Below, piece after piece: positions 1 through 49,554 of a DNA stretch of 64,000 nt (position 1 is its first letter; every line of letters begins with the position of its first letter). The notes under the pieces were generated by a model. The model made no database searches, had not been told where the DNA came from, and saw nothing but the letters and a program-made list of their open reading frames with translations. Source of the DNA: Candidatus Nomurabacteria bacterium (lineage in GTDB: Bacteria; Patescibacteriota; Minisyncoccia; Phycocordibacterales; UBA9973); assembly GCA_031425235.1 (NCBI GenBank), contig JANPIZ010000008.1, forward strand, positions 91,377-155,376, written 5' to 3'. A program made the position numbers and the translations under genes.

Positions 1-357
1 GTGATGCTGATTTGAAAGGCGAGAGAGAACAAGGCGGTAGCCACCAAGGCTTCCCTTAAGCCATTTTGATATGCGGGCAATTGTCGTAGAAGAAAGCCCT
101 GTGCTCTCACTGATAGCATTGTACTGCACATCTCTTGAGAGTAGGGAAGCAGCTTCGAGTCTATTTGCGAATTCTTGTATTTCACCTTCAGTCATAAGGT
201 CACGTAGAAAAGATTCAGCTTCTTGTGTATTTTTCAAAGCCAAAAAAGCTTGCACGAGTTGCTTGTTTTCAGGTTGGTTCCAGTCAATGTTTGACCCGAT
301 ACCTTGAACCATCTCTACTGTTTTAATATTCGTATTTTTATTCATTCCTTTACTCAT
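1..357 (-). CDS. TrpR-like YerC/YecD family DNA-binding protein (3' end runs off the window)
   Basis: Minus-strand ATG at 355-357. Translation MSKGMNKNTNIKTVEMVQG...FLRDLMTEGEIQEFANRLEAASLL...ISESTGLSSTTIARISKWLKGSLGGYRLVLSRL matches the YerC/YecD (TrpR-like) family along its whole length. It is absent from the ORF track only because it has no in-window stop. Confidence 0.8.
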   Translation of the reverse strand, partial: MSKGMNKNTNIKTVEMVQGIGSNIDWNQPENKQLVQAFLALKNTQEAESFLRDLMTEGEIQEFANRLEAASLLSRDVQYNAISESTGLSSTTIARISKWLKGSLGGYRLVLSRLSNQHH

Positions 358-358
358 C

Positions 359-430
359 CCAGTACTAAAATTTTAAGTTTATATTAATATCGACTCTTGT
401 CCGTAATCAAAAATTTAGTACGGGACAAGT
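359..430 (-). repeat. Copy 1 (reverse orientation) of a ~70-bp TIR-bearing upstream cassette; abuts the yerC-like start codon
   Basis: About 85-90% identical to 10677-10745 and 21602-21673. Terminal inverted repeats are GTACTAAA(A)TTTT ... AAAATTTTAGTAC, with an internal cccgta/tacggg hairpin. Confidence 0.75.
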
Positions 431-443
431 ACAGCTACTTTAT

Positions 444-473
444 CAAACTAAAGTACTTTAGTCAAGTAAAGTA
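444..473. repeat. Copy 1 of a 29-nt motif containing the perfect palindrome CTAAAGTACTTTAG
   Basis: caaACTAAAGTACTTTAGTCAAGTAAAGTA is repeated almost exactly at 6337-6365. Confidence 0.7.
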
Positions 474-587
474 TAAAAATCGCTGTGGAAAACTTTACTT
501 AGGTAAAGTAGGTAATTAAAGCTTTATTTAAATAAAATAAAAAGTCAGCATTCTTGTTTTGAATTACTGACTTTTTTGATAATTTAT

Positions 588-1004
588 TTAATAACTTCGA
601 TAATTGAAGGCACTTTGTATATCTTCAGATTTTAACATAAGACTTTTATTCCAACCAAAGGGAGAAGTTTTCACTTCAAACCCTTCAAATTGTCTGCATT
701 TTTCTAAAACCTGAAATGCAATATCTTTAGCAACTGTAGGGGTTGCTTGACTAGAACTTAGATGGTCAAACGCCTCGATCACAAGTTTTTTATTTCTCGC
801 AATTTTTTTAATATCATCGCAGATATCTTTGACTTGTTTTTGACCATCTTTGCTTTCAACTTGGAAGAGCACAAGTAAGCAATCTTTCATTTCTTCTTTT
901 GCTTTACCTGTTATATCTGCTGGTTCATAAACACCCCCTACTCGATTTGAAATAGTTATCGCTTCAGATGCCCATTCCTTGACGAATATCATTAATGCTT
1001 TCAT
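588..1004 (-). CDS. Free-standing archaeal-type threonyl-tRNA synthetase editing domain-like protein (DTD-like fold, putative Ser-tRNA(Thr) trans-editing factor)
   Basis: 138 aa. The C-terminal half, FDHLSSSQATPTVAKDIAFQVLEKCRQFEGFEVKTSPFGWNKSLMLKSEDI, follows the conserved AHLSS...P..A...L...G.EV.R.PFGW.K.F pattern of the Pyrococcus-type ThrRS N-terminal editing domain. No catalytic ThrRS domain is attached. Confidence 0.55.
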   Translation of the reverse strand: MKALMIFVKEWASEAITISNRVGGVYEPADITGKAKEEMKDCLLVLFQVESKDGQKQVKDICDDIKKIARNKKLVIEAFDHLSSSQATPTVAKDIAFQVLEKCRQFEGFEVKTSPFGWNKSLMLKSEDIQSAFNYRSY

Positions 1005-1042
1005 TGCTTTTTCTCCTTTGTTCTGATTTATAATATGAACAT

Positions 1043-1408
1043 TTAGTAGTAGAATCCATTAGGATAACACCGAAATTCAATAATATCCTTCTTAATGGCT
1101 TCTGACATAAGAGAGAAAGTTTTCTTATGATCCAGAGCTGAACTTCGCATGCCAAGCTGTGTGCAAAAAGAATTTAGTTCATCTTTTGTAAGCCCATTGA
1201 ATACACTTACTACAGCATCTGTAATAAATTTCAATGCTTCTTTTTCACACACAAAAACATGCTTCCATATTTTTCCAAAATTTATAAGTAATTCAGTTTC
1301 CCCTGCCTTGCAACCACACATCAATACAACTCCTGGGTTCAAAACCAAGCAACTCTTGATAAGTGAACGTGTTTCTTTCATTTTCTTTCTCCAATATTTA
1401 TTTGTCAA
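1043..1408 (-). CDS. hypothetical protein (121 aa), co-directional with and immediately upstream of the ThrRS-editing-like gene
   Basis: Intact ORF with a 38-nt gap to the downstream gene. No family recognised. Confidence 0.4.
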   Translation of the reverse strand: MTNKYWRKKMKETRSLIKSCLVLNPGVVLMCGCKAGETELLINFGKIWKHVFVCEKEALKFITDAVVSVFNGLTKDELNSFCTQLGMRSSALDHKKTFSLMSEAIKKDIIEFRCYPNGFYY

Positions 1409-1640
1409 TGAACCACTTTCATAAAGGGCGGTTCGAAGCCCCTTTGTTCAAAGAACAAAAACTGATCTATCTAAGAGACCAGTTGGAGGAGTCGAAATTT
1501 TGAGAAGATTACTAAATTATTTCGGCGCCTTGAAACAAGCCTCTTTTTGAGAGTTGTAATAGCCGTAATAATACATATTTGTTTGTATTTTATTTTTTTG
1601 AAAGGTTTGCGTATTCATAGATTTAAATTTAAATAATAAA

Positions 1641-1672
1641 AGGTAAAATAAAAAACCGCCTTGTGGGCGGTC
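1641..1672 (-). terminator. Rho-independent terminator for the nitroreductase gene
   Basis: On the minus strand, accgcccacaaggcggt is followed by TTTTTTATTTT. A second, weaker hairpin lies at ~1700-1725. Confidence 0.6.
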
Positions 1673-1807
1673 TTTGCTTGAAATAGTAAATTAATTAGCA
1701 AAAAGAAGACCGCTCCACAGGGCGGATATAATAGTTTACTGAAAATTTAATTAATGTAATCATTGCATCTATCTTATCATAATATAAAATTTTGTCAATA
1801 GCATATA

Positions 1808-6325: not shown

Positions 6326-6336
6326 CTGACTTTATT

Positions 6337-6365
6337 CAACTAAAGTACTTTAGTCAAGTAAAGTA
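6337..6365. repeat. Copy 2 of the CTAAAGTACTTTAG-containing motif; abuts the start codon of Cys-rich paralogue 1
   Basis: Identical 27-nt core to 444-473. It ends 4 nt before the ATG at 6370. Confidence 0.7.
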
Positions 6366-6369
6366 AAAA

Positions 6370-8076
6370 ATGAAACAAGAAAGTGAAACAAAATCGTGCC
6401 AGAATTGCAAACAAGACTTTACTATCGAGCCGGACGATTTTGGATTTTATGAAAAAATAAAAGTACCTCTGCCAACTTTTTGCTCAGAATGCCGCAGGCA
6501 AAGAAGGCTTGCATGGAAGAATACATACAACTTATACAACAATTCTTGTAGTCTTTGTGGTAAAAACATTATTTCAATATATTCCCCTGATTCCTCTTTA
6601 ATTATTTACTGTGTTAGCTGTTTTTGGAGTGATAAATGGGATGCATATCAATACGGGCAAGATTTTGACCCTAATAGGTCTTTTTTTGAACAGTATATAG
6701 ATCTTAATAAAAAGGTACCAAAAATAGCTTTAATGAATGATGATGGTATTGCAAGTGTAAATAGTGCTTATTGTCACGATGTTGCTTTTTCGAAAAATTG
6801 CTACATGGTATTTATTTCCTGGAAACTTGAAAATGTGATGTATTCAGGAATGTTAAACAAGGGTCGCGAAATATGCGATTGCCTTTGCATGCAAGATTTT
6901 TGTGAGTATATGTACGAGTCAATGTTTGTAGATGAATGTTATAAATGCAGATATGTGACGTATGGTAGCATGCTACAAAATTGCGATTTTTGTTATGATT
7001 GTCGTGAGTGCAGTGATTGCTTTATGAGCTTTGGCTTGCGTAATAAAAAATATTTTTATAAGAACAAACAGTATTCCAAAGAAGAATACGAAAAAATTCT
7101 TAAATCTTATCAATTGCATACACGAACGGGTTGGGAAAGAGCCAAAAATGAATATAAAGAATTTATAATAACTTATCCTCGTCGTTTTGCTATGATAAGG
7201 AATTCAGTTAACTGTACGGGAGATGACCTTATAAGATGTAAAAACACGAGAGATTCCTTTTTTGCTCCCTTTAGTGAAGACTCTCGCTTTGTTGCAGGAG
7301 GGGTTAATTTTAAGAATTGTTATGATTTGTCTGGTGGAGGGGAAGTAGAGTATAGTTATGAATCTATCACGCCCGATCAATCATATAATAATTTTTTTAG
7401 TATCTATTCTTGGAAAAATAAAGAAATAGCTTATTGTGATAATTGTCATTCGTCTAATAACCTTTTTGGTTGTGCAAGCTTGAAAAAAGGTGAATACTCA
7501 ATATTAAATAAGAAATATTCAAAAGAAGATTATTTTAAATTAAAAGAAAAAATAATAATAAAAATGAAACATGATGGGGAATGGGGAGAATTTTTTCCAG
7601 TTCGATATTCATATTTTGGATATAATGAAACTGAAGCTTTTGATATGAATATTTTATCAAAACATGAAGCTGAAAATTTAAACTATAAATGGCGAGATAA
7701 TTTACAAAGAACTATTGGACAAGAAACTATCTCTCAAAAGGAAATACCAGATTCTATTTTTGATACAACTGAGTATATTTTATATGAAATTTTAAAATGT
7801 GAATCTTGCTCTCGAAATTATAAAGTTACGAACGACGAGCTGGTGTTTTACAAAAGAATGAATGTACCTATTCCAAAAATTTGCTTTTTCTGTAGAAATA
7901 AAAATCGCTTAAATACTAGAAATCCGTTTAAGCTTTGGCATCGCTCATGTATGTGTACTGTCAAGAATCACTTTCATGGAGAAAATAATTGTAAAATAGA
8001 ATTTGAAACTTCCTATGCCCCTGATCGGCCGGAGATGGTATATTGTGAAAAATGTTATCAAGCTGAAGTTTACTAG
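6370..8076 (+). CDS. Large cysteine-rich protein, paralogue 1 (unrecognised family; terminal zinc-ribbon-like motifs plus internally duplicated Cys-repeat core)
   Basis: 568 aa. N-terminal CQNCKQDF...FYEKIKVPLPTFCSECRRQRRL...C..C is repeated near the C-terminus (FYKRMNVPIPKICFFCRNKNRL...C.C). N-K-K-Y-S-K-E-E/D-Y occurs twice. The protein aligns end to end at roughly 40% identity with the ORF at 47848-49554. Confidence 0.8.
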   Translation: MKQESETKSCQNCKQDFTIEPDDFGFYEKIKVPLPTFCSECRRQRRLAWKNTYNLYNNSCSLCGKNIISIYSPDSSLIIYCVSCFWSDKWDAYQYGQDFDPNRSFFEQYIDLNKKVPKIALMNDDGIASVNSAYCHDVAFSKNCYMVFISWKLENVMYSGMLNKGREICDCLCMQDFCEYMYESMFVDECYKCRYVTYGSMLQNCDFCYDCRECSDCFMSFGLRNKKYFYKNKQYSKEEYEKILKSYQLHTRTGWERAKNEYKEFIITYPRRFAMIRNSVNCTGDDLIRCKNTRDSFFAPFSEDSRFVAGGVNFKNCYDLSGGGEVEYSYESITPDQSYNNFFSIYSWKNKEIAYCDNCHSSNNLFGCASLKKGEYSILNKKYSKEDYFKLKEKIIIKMKHDGEWGEFFPVRYSYFGYNETEAFDMNILSKHEAENLNYKWRDNLQRTIGQETISQKEIPDSIFDTTEYILYEILKCESCSRNYKVTNDELVFYKRMNVPIPKICFFCRNKNRLNTRNPFKLWHRSCMCTVKNHFHGENNCKIEFETSYAPDRPEMVYCEKCYQAEVY

Positions 8077-10667: not shown

Positions 10668-10676
10668 TAAAAATAT

Positions 10677-10745
10677 TTGTCCCGTACTAAATTTTTGATT
10701 ACGGGGTATAATGATAAATATTAATATTTAAAATTTTAGTACTGG
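10677..10745 (+). repeat. Copy 2 of the ~70-bp TIR-bearing upstream cassette; abuts the protease start codon
   Basis: ttgtcccgtactaaatttttgattacgggg...aaaattttagtactgg followed directly by the ATG at 10747. Confidence 0.75.
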
Positions 10746-12810: not shown

Positions 12811-12934
12811 ATTTCAACCTCCTTTTCCTTATTAATTTTACCACAAACTCAAAAGGAATAGTTTTCAAAGGATAGTTGAAAAAAGCCTTTTAATATTTAA
12901 TATTTTGAGCCTCAGGTTTCCCGTGACGACGTGA

Positions 12935-13021
12935 TTGACAAATCAGTGTTTTTGTGATATACTATAAGAGTATGACTGGATTTAATTTTTTAATTCCAGA
13001 TCTCTTCGTTGAAAATAAAAT
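12935..13021 (+). promoter_or_regulatory. Promoter (TTGACA-N17-TATACT) plus conserved 5' leader, copy 1
   Basis: 100% identical over ~75 nt to 32085-32160. Contains the ctgga...tccag hairpin. Confidence 0.65.
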
Positions 13022-13024
13022 AAT

Positions 13025-13828
13025 ATGAAAATTTTGCAAAACAAAAAAGTCCGCTTTGCGGCAATTTTATTGGTTGCGTTGTTGGCAGCGTTGTCAACTC
13101 TTAATGCACAACCTGCGGAAGCAGTCACAGCCGAATTCGGCAACTACTTTGAAAGTGTTAAAAAGCTTAACCCCACGGTTAAGAATTTTCACACAATGAA
13201 CGTCGGCGAGGTCTATGGTTTGCCGGACGGCAAAACTGACCACCTCGAAGAAGGCGACACCGAAGGAATTTGGGGTCGCGAGCTGAGAAAATGGAATCAA
13301 CTTCGTTTGGATCCGGTGACCTCAGGTCAACCGTATGTAAACGGCGGAATTAGTCCCGATAACCCGGAACAGCTTGAACGTCAATTTGACAATCAAGCGC
13401 GATTTATGTCTGGGGGTCGTCAGTTTCCTGAACGCATCAGTCCCATTCAAAAAGGGAAAATTTTCGGCGAAGGACTCGTCGGCTATTTAGACCAAGGTTT
13501 TCAACCTCGTAAAATTGATGAGCCGGGCGTACCGGCATATCAGGCGACCTACAGATTCGCCAACGGGGAAGAAATTACCCTTCAATCTTTGATGGGTTGC
13601 ATGAACCCGATCGAAGAAGGTATTGGTCAAACGCGTAAAGGTTACACTTTCGTGCCGGACGGACAAAATCCGGATGTTGTTCCGCTCACGGTAGCGGACA
13701 ATAACGACAAGGGTAAAGACAAGGATTTCAATGGGAATTATATTCTCGGAGGATTTTTGTTTGCTTGTTTATTCGTTCGCCAACCCCCGTCGAAAGACCG
13801 GAAAAAATTACTATTTCTTTTGGTGTAG
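13025..13828 (+). CDS. secreted hypothetical protein (signal peptide), anomalously GC-rich
   Basis: N-terminus KKVRFAAILLVALLAALSTLNAQPAEA. Body is visibly GC-richer than surrounding genes. A possible C-terminal extension by frameshift is described in the findings. Confidence 0.6.
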   Translation: MKILQNKKVRFAAILLVALLAALSTLNAQPAEAVTAEFGNYFESVKKLNPTVKNFHTMNVGEVYGLPDGKTDHLEEGDTEGIWGRELRKWNQLRLDPVTSGQPYVNGGISPDNPEQLERQFDNQARFMSGGRQFPERISPIQKGKIFGEGLVGYLDQGFQPRKIDEPGVPAYQATYRFANGEEITLQSLMGCMNPIEEGIGQTRKGYTFVPDGQNPDVVPLTVADNNDKGKDKDFNGNYILGGFLFACLFVRQPPSKDRKKLLFLLV

Positions 13829-21592: not shown

Positions 21593-21601
21593 AAAATAAT
21601 A

Positions 21602-21673
21602 CTTGTCCCGTACTAAATTTTTGATTACGGGGCATAAAAATAAACATTATTAATTTAAAATTTTAGTACCGGG
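21602..21673 (+). repeat. Copy 3 of the ~70-bp TIR-bearing cassette, inside the operon and abutting the ABC ATPase start codon
   Basis: cttgtcccgtactaaatttttgattacgggg...ttaaaattttagtaccggg followed directly by the ATG at 21674. Confidence 0.75.
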
Positions 21674-32030: not shown

Positions 32031-32072
32031 TACTCCAAACATTTATTTATATATGTAAAATGGTTACAGTGT

Positions 32073-32160
32073 TTGACAAAACACTGTTTTTGTGATATAC
32101 TATAAGAGTATGACTGGATTTAATTTTTTAATTCCAGATCTCTTCGTTGAAAATAAAATT
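32073..32160 (+). promoter_or_regulatory. Promoter (TTGACA-N17-TATACT) plus conserved 5' leader, copy 2
   Basis: Identical to 12947-13021. Confidence 0.65.
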
Positions 32161-32649
32161 ATGAAAAATAAAAAAGTGAGCCTGCTTCGAACGGCACTTT
32201 TTACGTTTTTGTTCCTGGTTACGTTATTGGGGTCAATAACAAAAACGTCGGCACAAGTAACCTCAACTGCTACCTATAAAGTTGAGATACAAAAATTTAC
32301 TGTCGGAAGCTTATTCCCGAAAGCGCTCATCACGTTTTCGGAAAAAATTGCAGATCGGGAGGAATATTTTCGGTCTACAACAGCGAGTTTCGCTATAAAG
32401 TCCAAAGACGCTTCGCCTTTAATGGCGAAGTTGCAACAACAGGCGGTCGAAACCCCGTCACAAGGGATTTTGAACAAATTTTCCTTTTATATCAAAGATG
32501 ATGTAATGGAAATCCATTTTATTTTGAGAAATGAATTCACTGATTGTGAATTCATCGAAAAAATCGAAAAAATCATCGAAACGATAAAAGAAGAAAAATT
32601 TAAAAATAAAGTTCTGAAAAGAACATCGCTGACGTTCACGCAAAAATAA
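32161..32649 (+). CDS. secreted hypothetical protein (signal peptide homologous to that of the 13025 gene)
   Basis: MKNKKVSLLRTALFTFLFLVTLLGSITKTSAQV. The track ORF starts upstream at 32092, but the leader is shared, so ATG 32161 is preferred. Confidence 0.55.
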   Translation: MKNKKVSLLRTALFTFLFLVTLLGSITKTSAQVTSTATYKVEIQKFTVGSLFPKALITFSEKIADREEYFRSTTASFAIKSKDASPLMAKLQQQAVETPSQGILNKFSFYIKDDVMEIHFILRNEFTDCEFIEKIEKIIETIKEEKFKNKVLKRTSLTFTQK

Positions 32650-47847: not shown

Positions 47848-49554
47848 ATGACAAGTGAAACAAAAAATTGTCAAAATTGTAAAACAGATTTTGTAATAGA
47901 ATCTGGAGACTTTAACTTTTATGAAAAAATAAAAGTTCCACCGCCGACCTTTTGTCCGAACTGTAGACTTACGCGTAGATTTCTCCATTCAAATGAAATG
48001 GTGTTATACAAACGTAAATGCGACCTGACTCAAAAAGATATTTTTAGCATGTATCCACCTAAAACACTTTTTCCTGTCTATGAGACATCGGAGTGGTATT
48101 CTGACAAATGGGATGCATATGAATATGGGATGGATTTCGATGAGACCAGACCCTTTTTAGAGCAATTTTTAGAGCTCCAAAATAAAGTACCGCGTATGGC
48201 TCTGACACAACAAGGTCAAACAATTAATAGTGCGTATACTCATAGAGTATCTTATCCAAAAAACTCATACATGGCTTTTCGAGCTTCTTATCCAGAGGAT
48301 TGTTTGTATGTGTATAACGCCAAGTACACTCGAAATTGCGCTGACTCAATATGGATTTTTGACTCAGATCTTTGTTATGAATGTATAAATGTAGAAAATT
48401 GTTACAACTTAAAATATAGTCAAGAATGCAAAGATTCCCGTGATTCCAGCTTTTTATACAGTTGTAAAAACACCTCAAATTCAACTTTATGTGTTAATTT
48501 AGTCAACGCAGAGTGCTGTATTTGGAATAAAAAATATACAAAAGAAGAGTACGTCAAAAAATTAGCAAACATGGGACTCAATAAATTTTCTAACGTTGAG
48601 AAGCTAAAGAAAGAGTTTGAAGAGTTTAGAAAGAAATTTCCACAAAGAGCTGTGGCTTCATTAAAATCTGAGCAAGTGTCTGGTAACTGGTTTTCGGGTT
48701 GCAAAAATGTTCATGAATCATTTGATTGCGTCAATGTAAAAGATGGCAAATATTTATTCATGGTTTTCAATGCCGAAGATTGTATGGATTTTTTCGAATG
48801 GGGCAACAAAGCCGAGCAAATCTATGAGACAACTAATGCTGGTCTCAATGTTGCCAGATTATACTTTTGCTTTCAGTGTTGGATGGGAGCAACAGATCTG
48901 TATTACTGCAACACATGTCCTGGTGCACGAAACTGCTTTGGTTGCGTGGGTCTAAAGAAAGGCGAATACTCTATTCTAAACAAGAAGTATTCGAAAGAAG
49001 AATATGAAATTTTAAAAGAAAAAATTATTAAGCATATGCAAAAAATGCCTTTTATAAGTAATACTGGTATTGAATATAAATTTGGGGAATTTTTTCCTCC
49101 AGAATTTTCAGATCATGCTTATAATGAAACCATCGCAAATTATTATTTTCCACTTTCACAAGAGGAAGCTTTGTCTCGCGGTTATAAATGGAAAGACAAG
49201 GAAAAAGTAGTCCACCAGACGACAGTCAAAGCTAAGGATCTGCCAGACACAATAGAAGAAGTAACTGACGCCATACTCAATGAAATCATAGAGTGCGGAG
49301 AAAAAGATAATCCAGAATCAGTTGGAGCGTTTCGCATAACTCCAAATGAGCTCAATTTTTATAGGAAAATGAATATTCCACTACCGAGAGTATGCTTTAG
49401 CATCAGACACTTGCGCCGGATGGACAGGAGACCAAAACTAAACATTTTTAAGAGAAAATGTGATAAGTGTAGTGTTGAAGTTGAAACAGTATATACTAAA
49501 GAGCATGCACCGGTATTGTATTGTGAAAAATGTTATCAACAAGAAGTTTACTAA
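47848..49554 (+). CDS. Large cysteine-rich protein, paralogue 2
   Basis: 568 aa with the same architecture as 6370-8076. Identical C-terminus YCEKCYQ.EVY. Conserved LKKGEYSILNKKYSKEEY block. Confidence 0.8.
   Translation: MTSETKNCQNCKTDFVIESGDFNFYEKIKVPPPTFCPNCRLTRRFLHSNEMVLYKRKCDLTQKDIFSMYPPKTLFPVYETSEWYSDKWDAYEYGMDFDETRPFLEQFLELQNKVPRMALTQQGQTINSAYTHRVSYPKNSYMAFRASYPEDCLYVYNAKYTRNCADSIWIFDSDLCYECINVENCYNLKYSQECKDSRDSSFLYSCKNTSNSTLCVNLVNAECCIWNKKYTKEEYVKKLANMGLNKFSNVEKLKKEFEEFRKKFPQRAVASLKSEQVSGNWFSGCKNVHESFDCVNVKDGKYLFMVFNAEDCMDFFEWGNKAEQIYETTNAGLNVARLYFCFQCWMGATDLYYCNTCPGARNCFGCVGLKKGEYSILNKKYSKEEYEILKEKIIKHMQKMPFISNTGIEYKFGEFFPPEFSDHAYNETIANYYFPLSQEEALSRGYKWKDKEKVVHQTTVKAKDLPDTIEEVTDAILNEIIECGEKDNPESVGAFRITPNELNFYRKMNIPLPRVCFSIRHLRRMDRRPKLNIFKRKCDKCSVEVETVYTKEHAPVLYCEKCYQQEVY

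Follow-up and report, generated by a model that had tools for sequence, protein, structure and literature searches.

A single-domain homologue of the archaeal threonyl-tRNA synthetase editing domain in a bacterial genome and its free-standing family, whose closest members are mostly encoded beside an amino acid racemase gene

The 64,000-nucleotide stretch of a Candidatus Nomurabacteria contig analysed here (the window) contains a gene for a 138-aa protein that is a free-standing homologue of the editing domain (NTD) at the N-terminus of archaeal threonyl-tRNA synthetase (ThrRS), a domain with the DTD-like fold. Sequence comparisons place this protein in a clade of its own kind, made up of single-domain proteins from Patescibacteria and some DPANN archaea and distinct from the ThrRS-fused domains, and the genes of nearly all members of its subclade adjoin a gene of the Asp/Glu racemase superfamily. 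The protein is probably an aminoacyl-tRNA deacylase of some kind. We also put forward, tentatively and at somewhat less than an even chance, the fuller explanation that it is a single-domain, trans-acting deacylase of the NTD branch whose substrate is tied to the product of the racemase.

The first-pass annotation of this DNA had assigned a 138-aa protein to the interval listed for it in Table 1, and an ORF check bore this out, placing the gene on the minus strand. The reading frame is intact, is preceded by a good ribosome-binding site and has a codon-usage score typical for genes of the window, which has a GC content of 37.9%. The protein ends with ...AFNYRSY-stop. As had been noted, no synthetase body is attached, the ORF stopping at residue 138; none is fused to it, and no ThrRS or class II synthetase body is encoded within the 64-kb window. 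The hairpin 3′ of the gene is weak and is absent from the consensus terminator scan because its loop is long. The gene content of the window (topoisomerase I, RelA/SpoT, F-type ATP synthase subunits, GatB, YqeY and ribosome recycling factor) is bacterial, in agreement with the earlier view that an editing-domain gene lies here in a bacterial genome. Each of the window proteins looked up is a singleton at 90% identity. The sole other contig with both this gene and the ORF upstream of it (L001) is 100% identical to the window.

Table 1. Features at and around the editing-domain gene, in window coordinates
Feature	Position	Strand	Basis or remarks
ORF of the Trp-repressor family (PF01371), immediately 3′ of the 138-aa gene, reaching the window edge	1..357	minus	
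Possible terminator 3′ of the 138-aa gene: AGTCAG...CTGACT stem, then T-run	~541..580	minus	Read from sequence
138-aa single-domain homologue of the archaeal ThrRS NTD (DTD-like fold); ATG at 1004, stop at 588	588..1004	minus	ORF, profile and model
Shine-Dalgarno-like AAGGAG, 8 nt 5′ of the ATG of the 138-aa gene	1013..1018	minus	Read from sequence
Upstream co-directional orphan ORF, 112 aa from ATG	1043..1381	minus	ORF, ribosome-binding site and gene call
Long intergenic region 5′ of the two-gene unit	1409..1807	minus	Hairpin/T-run structures at ~1735-1700 (by eye), 1675-1651 and 1484-1460

The assignment of the protein to the NTD family rests on profile, sequence and fold comparisons that agree with one another. 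The editing-domain signature, as read from the ORF translation, is FDHLSSSQATPTVAKDIAFQVLEKCRQFEGFEVKTSPFGWNKSL; the motif quoted earlier was nearly right, except that its AHLSS should be DHLSS and its K.F should be K-S-L. The protein scores 64.3 bits against Pfam PF08915 (tRNA-Thr_ED; cut-off 30.2, E=1.6e-17), with an alignment that spans profile positions 25-125 of 137. A sequence search of the PDB gave significant matches only to the ThrRS editing domains of P. abyssi, M. jannaschii and A. pernix (E=1.4e-6 to 2.4e-3). Comparison with P. abyssi 1y2q/2hl0, which the first-pass annotation had proposed as a check, gave E=1.4e-6, with HLSS and PFGxxK of the 138-aa protein aligned to FAHLSS and PFGYYK. 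An AlphaFold2 model built on 21 relatives has a pLDDT of 91.5 and a pTM of 0.86, and its C-terminal segment is confident too. When this predicted model was compared with the PDB by Foldseek, the top 23 matches were all NTDs of P. abyssi, A. pernix or M. jannaschii (TM 0.79-0.88, E ~1e-11), and DTDs ranked next (TM ~0.7, E ~1e-6). The earlier identification of a free-standing homologue of the Pyrococcus-type editing domain is thus upheld: by sequence and fold the protein is a member of PF08915 that lacks the fusion and two of the conserved-residue features. It is not a DTD. Its score against the DTD profile PF02580 is 16.8 bits, under the cut-off of 25, and neither the SQFTL nor the NxGPVT (Gly-cisPro) motif of DTD occurs in its sequence.

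Most of the residues that matter for NTD catalysis are present in the 138-aa protein. In the P. abyssi domain (PabNTD), the residues within 6 Å of the scissile bond are Pro80, Phe81, Ala82, His83, Tyr120 and Lys121, together with Glu134 of the partner subunit; the chemistry is done by the 2′-OH of the tRNA, and Lys121 positions the catalytic water (PMC4491819). His83, Lys121, Phe117-Gly118 and Phe81 correspond to H81, K120, F116-G117 and F79 of the 138-aa protein, and Glu46, Asp49 and Arg137 of NTD are conserved as well. Eight residues are invariant in 21 free-standing relatives (Glu46, Phe81, His83, Leu84, Ser85, Phe117, Gly118 and Lys121 in PabNTD numbering), and the 138-aa protein keeps all eight. 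That His83 and Lys121 are retained is consistent with an active deacylase.

The positions that are not conserved fall into two groups, those shared by the subclade and those peculiar to the window protein. Glu134 and Pro80 correspond to F133 and A78. Glu134 is replaced by F, V or I in all 13 subclade members and Pro80 by A, C or G in 12 of the 13, whereas both are invariant in 31 ThrRS-fused domains. Asn at the position of Tyr120 was considered as a further clade marker and ruled out; it does not distinguish the groups because it is equally common in ThrRS-fused domains. Peculiar to the window protein is the replacement of the K128-G-H-P131 loop of PabNTD by E127-D-I-Q130. His130 is kept in all 44 other sequences compared, so that the window protein alone of the 45 is without it, and Gly129 and Pro131 are missing too. 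Experiments with NTD showed the side chains of Tyr120 and Glu134 to be dispensable for activity and specificity for L-Ser to rest on main-chain atoms (PMC4491819). For this reason, the loss of Glu134 need not alter the substrate and is by itself no proof of a new specificity.

The relatives of the 138-aa protein are numerous, and the closest of them are stand-alone proteins. An exhaustive HMMER scan of 1.84 billion representative proteins gave 86 matches, of which the best (E=4e-26 to ~1e-8) were stand-alone proteins of 128-190 aa that aligned end to end; full-length ThrRS appeared only from E ~3e-9 onward. A word-index homologue search with the single protein recovered only itself, a related-locus search of genome contigs with it gave nothing, and a profile search found at least 312 clusters at E≤1e-5, the top 120 of which were all 125-163 aa long. 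Some clusters of the family carry the NCBI name 'threonyl-tRNA synthetase editing domain-containing protein' (Saccharimonadales, 'bacterium' and Nanoarchaeia). Genomes were searched with a degenerate 180-nt DNA pattern (F-x-H-L-S, 32 codons, F-G-x-x-K, L, R-x-[YF]), which fixes the His-to-Phe spacing at 35 codons and therefore samples only part of the family. It gave 27 genome matches, 9 of them chance matches. The free-standing members among them came from four Paceibacterota MAGs, one Nomurabacteria MAG, one 'Patescibacteria group' MAG and one unclassified archaeon, and the pattern also recovered fused ThrRS genes from Micrarchaeota and Marsarchaeota. Its nearest relatives are encoded in Patescibacteria MAGs, and no relative was present in the phage or plasmid collections.

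In a neighbour-joining (NJ) tree, the window protein groups with P0003, L020 and L040 inside the free-standing clade. The smallest clade uniting it with the racemase-linked members was free of ThrRS-fused domains in 60 of 60 NJ bootstrap replicates, and its immediate sister group consisted of racemase-linked members only in 24 of 60; its placement inside the racemase-linked subclade is therefore only moderately supported. Free-standing members score 55-64 bits against PF08915, compared with 146-168 bits for genuine ThrRS domains. The marks of the clade are a single domain, an end at R-[S/E]-[Y/F] and a hydrophobic residue at the position of Glu134, and the window protein has all of them. Because the clade is free of fused domains in the tree and its members score so low against PF08915, the family is a long-diverged paralogous clade and not a freshly captured synthetase fragment. 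Nor is the protein a lone horizontal acquisition, horizontal acquisition having been one of the earlier suggestions; it sits in a large separate clade of single-domain proteins from Patescibacteria and DPANN.

The gene neighbourhoods of these relatives hint at a function. Of 13 distinct subclade members with readable flanks, the window protein included in the count, 12 have an adjoining gene of the Asp/Glu racemase superfamily that encodes 225-250 aa. The gap between the two genes is roughly 20-170 bp. The racemase gene lies downstream and co-directional in P0004, P0007, L025, L041, L049, P0010, P0005 and P0009, upstream and co-directional in L043, and convergent with the editing-domain gene in P0003/L002, L020 and L040. 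Subclade proteins that have kept this adjacency are only 33-66% identical, and persistence through changes of orientation at such divergence argues for functional coupling. Two of three racemases tested scored above the cut-off of TIGR00035 ('amino acid racemase'), the third (L025) falling just under it at 89.8 versus 93.1; members of TIGR00035 include broad-spectrum and cysteate racemases. In the PDB, the racemase neighbours match the aspartate racemase of P. horikoshii best (1jfl, E=1e-39), and they retain both catalytic Cys residues. From homology, their substrate would be of the aspartate type. More distant free-standing subgroups have unrelated neighbours and no racemase.

Other features of these loci were also recorded. 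Among the loci examined, no ThrRS gene lies near any free-standing member. A ThrRS-like match 3 kb from the homologue in L020 proved to be ProRS by sequence. TrpR-family genes flank the editing-domain/racemase pair in L053, L043 and L049. In locus L050, a free-standing AlaX with intact zinc motifs is encoded in the same cluster.

The window gene is the exception to the racemase linkage: no racemase gene lies beside it or elsewhere within the 64-kb window, and it is the only one of the 13 subclade members without an adjoining one. Its upstream neighbour is instead a co-directional ORF that the first-pass annotation had described as 121 aa long and as a possible functional partner. An ORF does lie there, but the 121-aa length is obtained only if it is read from a TTG at 1408 (1043-1408, minus strand). 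A length of 112 aa is more likely: the ATG at 1381 is preceded at a distance of 7 nt by a GGAG (1389-1392), and on the identical contig L001 a gene call made independently also has 112 aa. Because the gap to the 138-aa gene is 38 bp and no terminator intervenes, the two genes are probably co-transcribed. The long intergenic region 5′ of this unit was searched for a T-box, riboswitch or other leader; the best Rfam match had E=0.17 and the fold z-score of −1.6 was not significant.

The 112-aa ORF probably represents a genuine gene confined to its lineage. Among the reading frames, the annotated one has the best codon-usage score, although that score is modest (0.09 versus 0.12-0.30 for most genes). 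It had no match in Pfam, NCBIfam, PDB or PHROGs, no homologue among 5.8 billion protein clusters and no counterpart beside any other family member. It is also unlike the racemase encoded beside the gene in relatives (hhalign probability against the racemase profile, 0.2%), and its single-sequence AF2 model, with a pLDDT of only 45, is too poor to be used. The proposed functional partnership is not supported by these results, adjacency being all that links this orphan to the editing-domain gene.

How might such a protein act? By analogy with NTD and DTD, it would work as a homodimer that binds the 3′-terminal A76 of a mis-acylated tRNA, and the ester bond would be hydrolysed by the 2′-OH of the tRNA with a water positioned by the Lys. 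Because the protein has no anticodon-binding domain, its recognition of tRNA would be limited to the acceptor end at most. The synteny is the reason that a substrate tied to the racemase product is our leading idea. D-Asp-tRNA(Asp) is a substrate of DTD, and the family might likewise clear D-aminoacyl-tRNAs such as D-Asp-tRNA(Asp), a step of the proposal that is less certain than the chemistry and that would amount to chiral proofreading and not to replacement of a missing ThrRS editing function. We judge it possible, with the balance tipped slightly the other way, that the substrate of the family is D-amino-acid related. The window gene without its racemase, the loss of the K-G-H-P loop and the distant subgroups without racemase neighbours all speak against this reading. 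Given the lack of a racemase neighbour and the E-D-I-Q sequence in place of K-G-H-P, the specificity of the window copy may have drifted. A broader and more doubtful proposal is that the family is a fourth functional branch of the DTD-like fold, racemase-coupled and devoted to chiral proofreading or the clearing of D-Asp-tRNA in ultra-small organisms possibly without canonical DTD, and that the window copy is a derived member that has left the partnership.

One alternative explanation is trans-editing of Ser-tRNA(Thr): the protein would make up for a reduced ThrRS, having kept the ancestral specificity for L-Ser and reading the acceptor end of bacterial tRNA(Thr). The nearest characterised homologues are indeed Ser-tRNA(Thr) deacylases, but ThrRS lies near no free-standing member and the conserved neighbour is a racemase. 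The replacement by the clade of Glu134 and Pro80, the two residues invariant in the fused domains, also speaks against this explanation, although PabNTD on its own shows activity and specificity with E. coli tRNA(Thr), a specificity for which the side chains of Tyr120 and Glu134 are not needed (PMC4491819), and genuine ThrRS-fused domains, too, commonly have Asn in place of Tyr120. The one relative that clusters with a free-standing AlaX shows that such lineages use trans-editing against serine mischarging. On balance, we regard retention of the serine substrate as rather unlikely, though viable.

It is improbable that the window gene is a drifting or functionally lost copy, either a relic or a protein that now serves, together with the orphan 112-aa gene, a role that is non-catalytic or particular to the lineage. 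Its pairing with that orphan, its standing as the sole subclade member without a racemase neighbour and its unique lack of His130, with Gly129 and Pro131 also gone, are what such a copy might show; however, the ORF is intact with a good ribosome-binding site and typical codon usage, the eight family-invariant residues are all kept, and the structure model is confident through the C-terminal segment. There is similarly little likelihood that the protein deacylates some other mischarged or non-proteinogenic aminoacyl-tRNA, candidates being tRNA(Ala) charged with Gly or Ser and an amino-acid analogue on which the racemase-family neighbour acts; it would then be analogous to ATD, ProXp-ST and CtdA, in which editing folds were repurposed for new substrates. 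This is a residual category for which no particular substrate is indicated, even though the pocket residues are altered, TIGR00035 includes broad-spectrum and cysteate racemases, one locus has an AlaX neighbour, and the DTD-like fold has switched substrate before, from DTD to ATD (PMC5802732).

PF08915 is named 'Archaea-specific', and a populous bacterial clade of single-domain NTD-type proteins, marked by an active-site signature of its own, would be a further branch of one of the oldest proofreading folds. The near-obligate pairing with a racemase offers a concrete hypothesis for how ultra-small, genome-reduced bacteria shield translation from their own D-amino acids; should the substrate instead be Ser-tRNA(Thr), the family would show how such bacteria edit serine mischarging without a full ThrRS. 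Its occurrence in Patescibacteria as well as in DPANN is relevant to the question of gene sharing between the two. In the full-text literature, which covers few subscription journals, we came across no account of single-domain NTD proteins as a bacterial family or of their linkage to a racemase, and nothing relevant on tRNA deacylases or chiral proofreading in Patescibacteria, CPR or Saccharibacteria.

Among known systems, the closest is the archaeal ThrRS NTD (P. abyssi 1Y2Q/2HL0, M. jannaschii 4RRF). The window protein has the same fold (TM 0.8-0.88 for the predicted model) and similar length (~140 aa), it keeps His83, Lys121, Phe81, the PFGxxK strand, Glu46, Asp49 and Arg137, and it presumably shares the dimeric state and the hydrolysis assisted by the tRNA 2′-OH. 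It differs in being unfused and in a bacterium, in its lower PF08915 score (64 bits versus 146-168), in having Phe for Glu134, Ala for Pro80 and E-D-I-Q for K-G-H-P, and in ending right after R-S-Y, which aligns to the start of the SRxx linker. The parallel drawn earlier with the free-standing ThrRS-ED of Crenarchaea (Sulfolobus ThrRS-ed; Aeropyrum pernix ThrRS-2, 4RR6) holds for the domain, which is homologous and acts in trans, apart from the aminoacylating enzyme, but not for the architecture. Crenarchaeal ThrRS-ED proteins are ~390 aa long and still have a synthetase-like body, which includes an anticodon-binding domain (PMC11295145), whereas the window protein is a bare 138-aa domain. Because its score against NCBIfam NF011500 (Ser-tRNA(Thr) hydrolase) is 31.9 bits, far under the cut-off of 362, and covers only model positions 23-119 of 387, we conclude that it has another architecture.

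In the searchable literature, the DTD-like fold is described with three branches: DTD, the archaeal ThrRS NTD and the animal ATD. Like DTD (PF02580; E. coli 1JKE, P. falciparum 4NBI), a protein of ~145 aa that acts in trans on the acceptor end only, the window protein is free-standing and of the same fold class, and the racemase synteny of its family suggests an analogous role in chiral proofreading. Unlike DTD, it is missing SQFTL and NxGPVT (Gly-cisPro), the motifs that define the rejection of L-amino acids by DTD. ATD provides the precedent of a free-standing paralogue with the DTD-like fold that gained a new substrate through small active-site changes (PMC5802732); it arose from DTD, carries a Gly-transPro motif and occurs in animals only, whereas the present family stems from the NTD branch and is found in Patescibacteria and DPANN. 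With AlaX, ProXp-ST1/ST2 and YbaK, whose folds are unrelated, the family would have in common the way of working, in which a small protein with no synthetase attached hydrolyses mischarged tRNAs.

Trp-repressor-family genes (PF01371) lie beside the pair of editing-domain and racemase genes at three loci (L053, L043 and L049) that carry relatives of the window NTD-like gene, a single-domain homologue of the editing domain found on archaeal ThrRS, and one also occurs in the window. At L053 this gene is preceded by a TrpRS/TyrRS-type synthetase gene (PF00579). The window Trp-repressor-family protein and the L053 type have diverged too far to give a BLASTP alignment.

Of the two copies of a 42-nt element containing the palindrome TACTTTA..TAAAGTA, one lies 5′ of the window Trp-repressor-family gene and the other 5′ of the 568-aa gene at 6370; this element may be an operator. 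An intergenic repeat with the hairpin CCCGTA...TACGGG has a third copy, partial and inverted, just 5′ of the same Trp-repressor-family gene, and a 94-nt repeat, which includes a hairpin and a near-consensus promoter (TTGACA ... TATACT), precedes two genes that differ from each other, at 13025-13828 and at 32092-32649. Elsewhere in the window there is a paralogue of the 568-aa gene at 6370, with stretches of about 70-74% DNA identity and a similar Cys-rich C-terminal tail (...YCEKCYQ.EVY); neither product matched a Pfam family.

Tandem hairpin/T-run structures occupy the interval that separates the nitroreductase gene from the 112-aa ORF upstream of the NTD-like gene. They surround a 33-codon ORF (...MYYYGYYNS...) with no obvious ribosome-binding site, and no Rfam family matched the minus strand of 1460-1740.

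Coordinates of neighbouring genes, repeats and hairpin structures
Feature	Location	Strand	Remark
Trp-repressor-family gene	L053:1449-1736		
Trp-repressor-family gene	L043:1990-2268		
Trp-repressor-family gene	L049:2804-3058		
Trp-repressor-family gene	window 1-357	minus	directly 3′ of NTD-like gene
NTD-like, aspartate-type racemase and free-standing AlaX genes, in that order	L050:2942-4894		one relative
568-aa paralogues	window 6370-8076, 47848-49554		
42-nt element	window 437-478, 6329-6370		93% identity
CCCGTA...TACGGG repeat	window 10669-10737, 21595-21663		86% identity between copies
CCCGTA...TACGGG repeat, third copy	window 402-431		
94-nt repeat	window 12931-13024, 32069-32162		96% identity
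Hairpin/T-runs	window about 1735-1700 (by eye), 1675-1651, 1484-1460	minus	
33-codon ORF	window about 1618-1517	minus	

The lineage of the window is very sparsely sampled. All nine conserved window proteins that were found in a collection of 15 billion proteins are representatives of clusters that, at 90% identity, have no more than two members, and they were encountered only in the 172-kb NCBI contig and one Logan run (SRR20217183).

Two related proteins, P0068 (355 aa) and P0013 (291 aa), add further architectures of the free-standing NTD-like domain, one a fusion to a SAM-dependent methyltransferase and one a tandem duplication. At L050, the locus of another relative, the AlaX protein (225 aa; PF01411 and PF07973) retains both zinc motifs, HxxxH and CxxxH, and the gene order there thus places the racemase between two different trans-editing factors.
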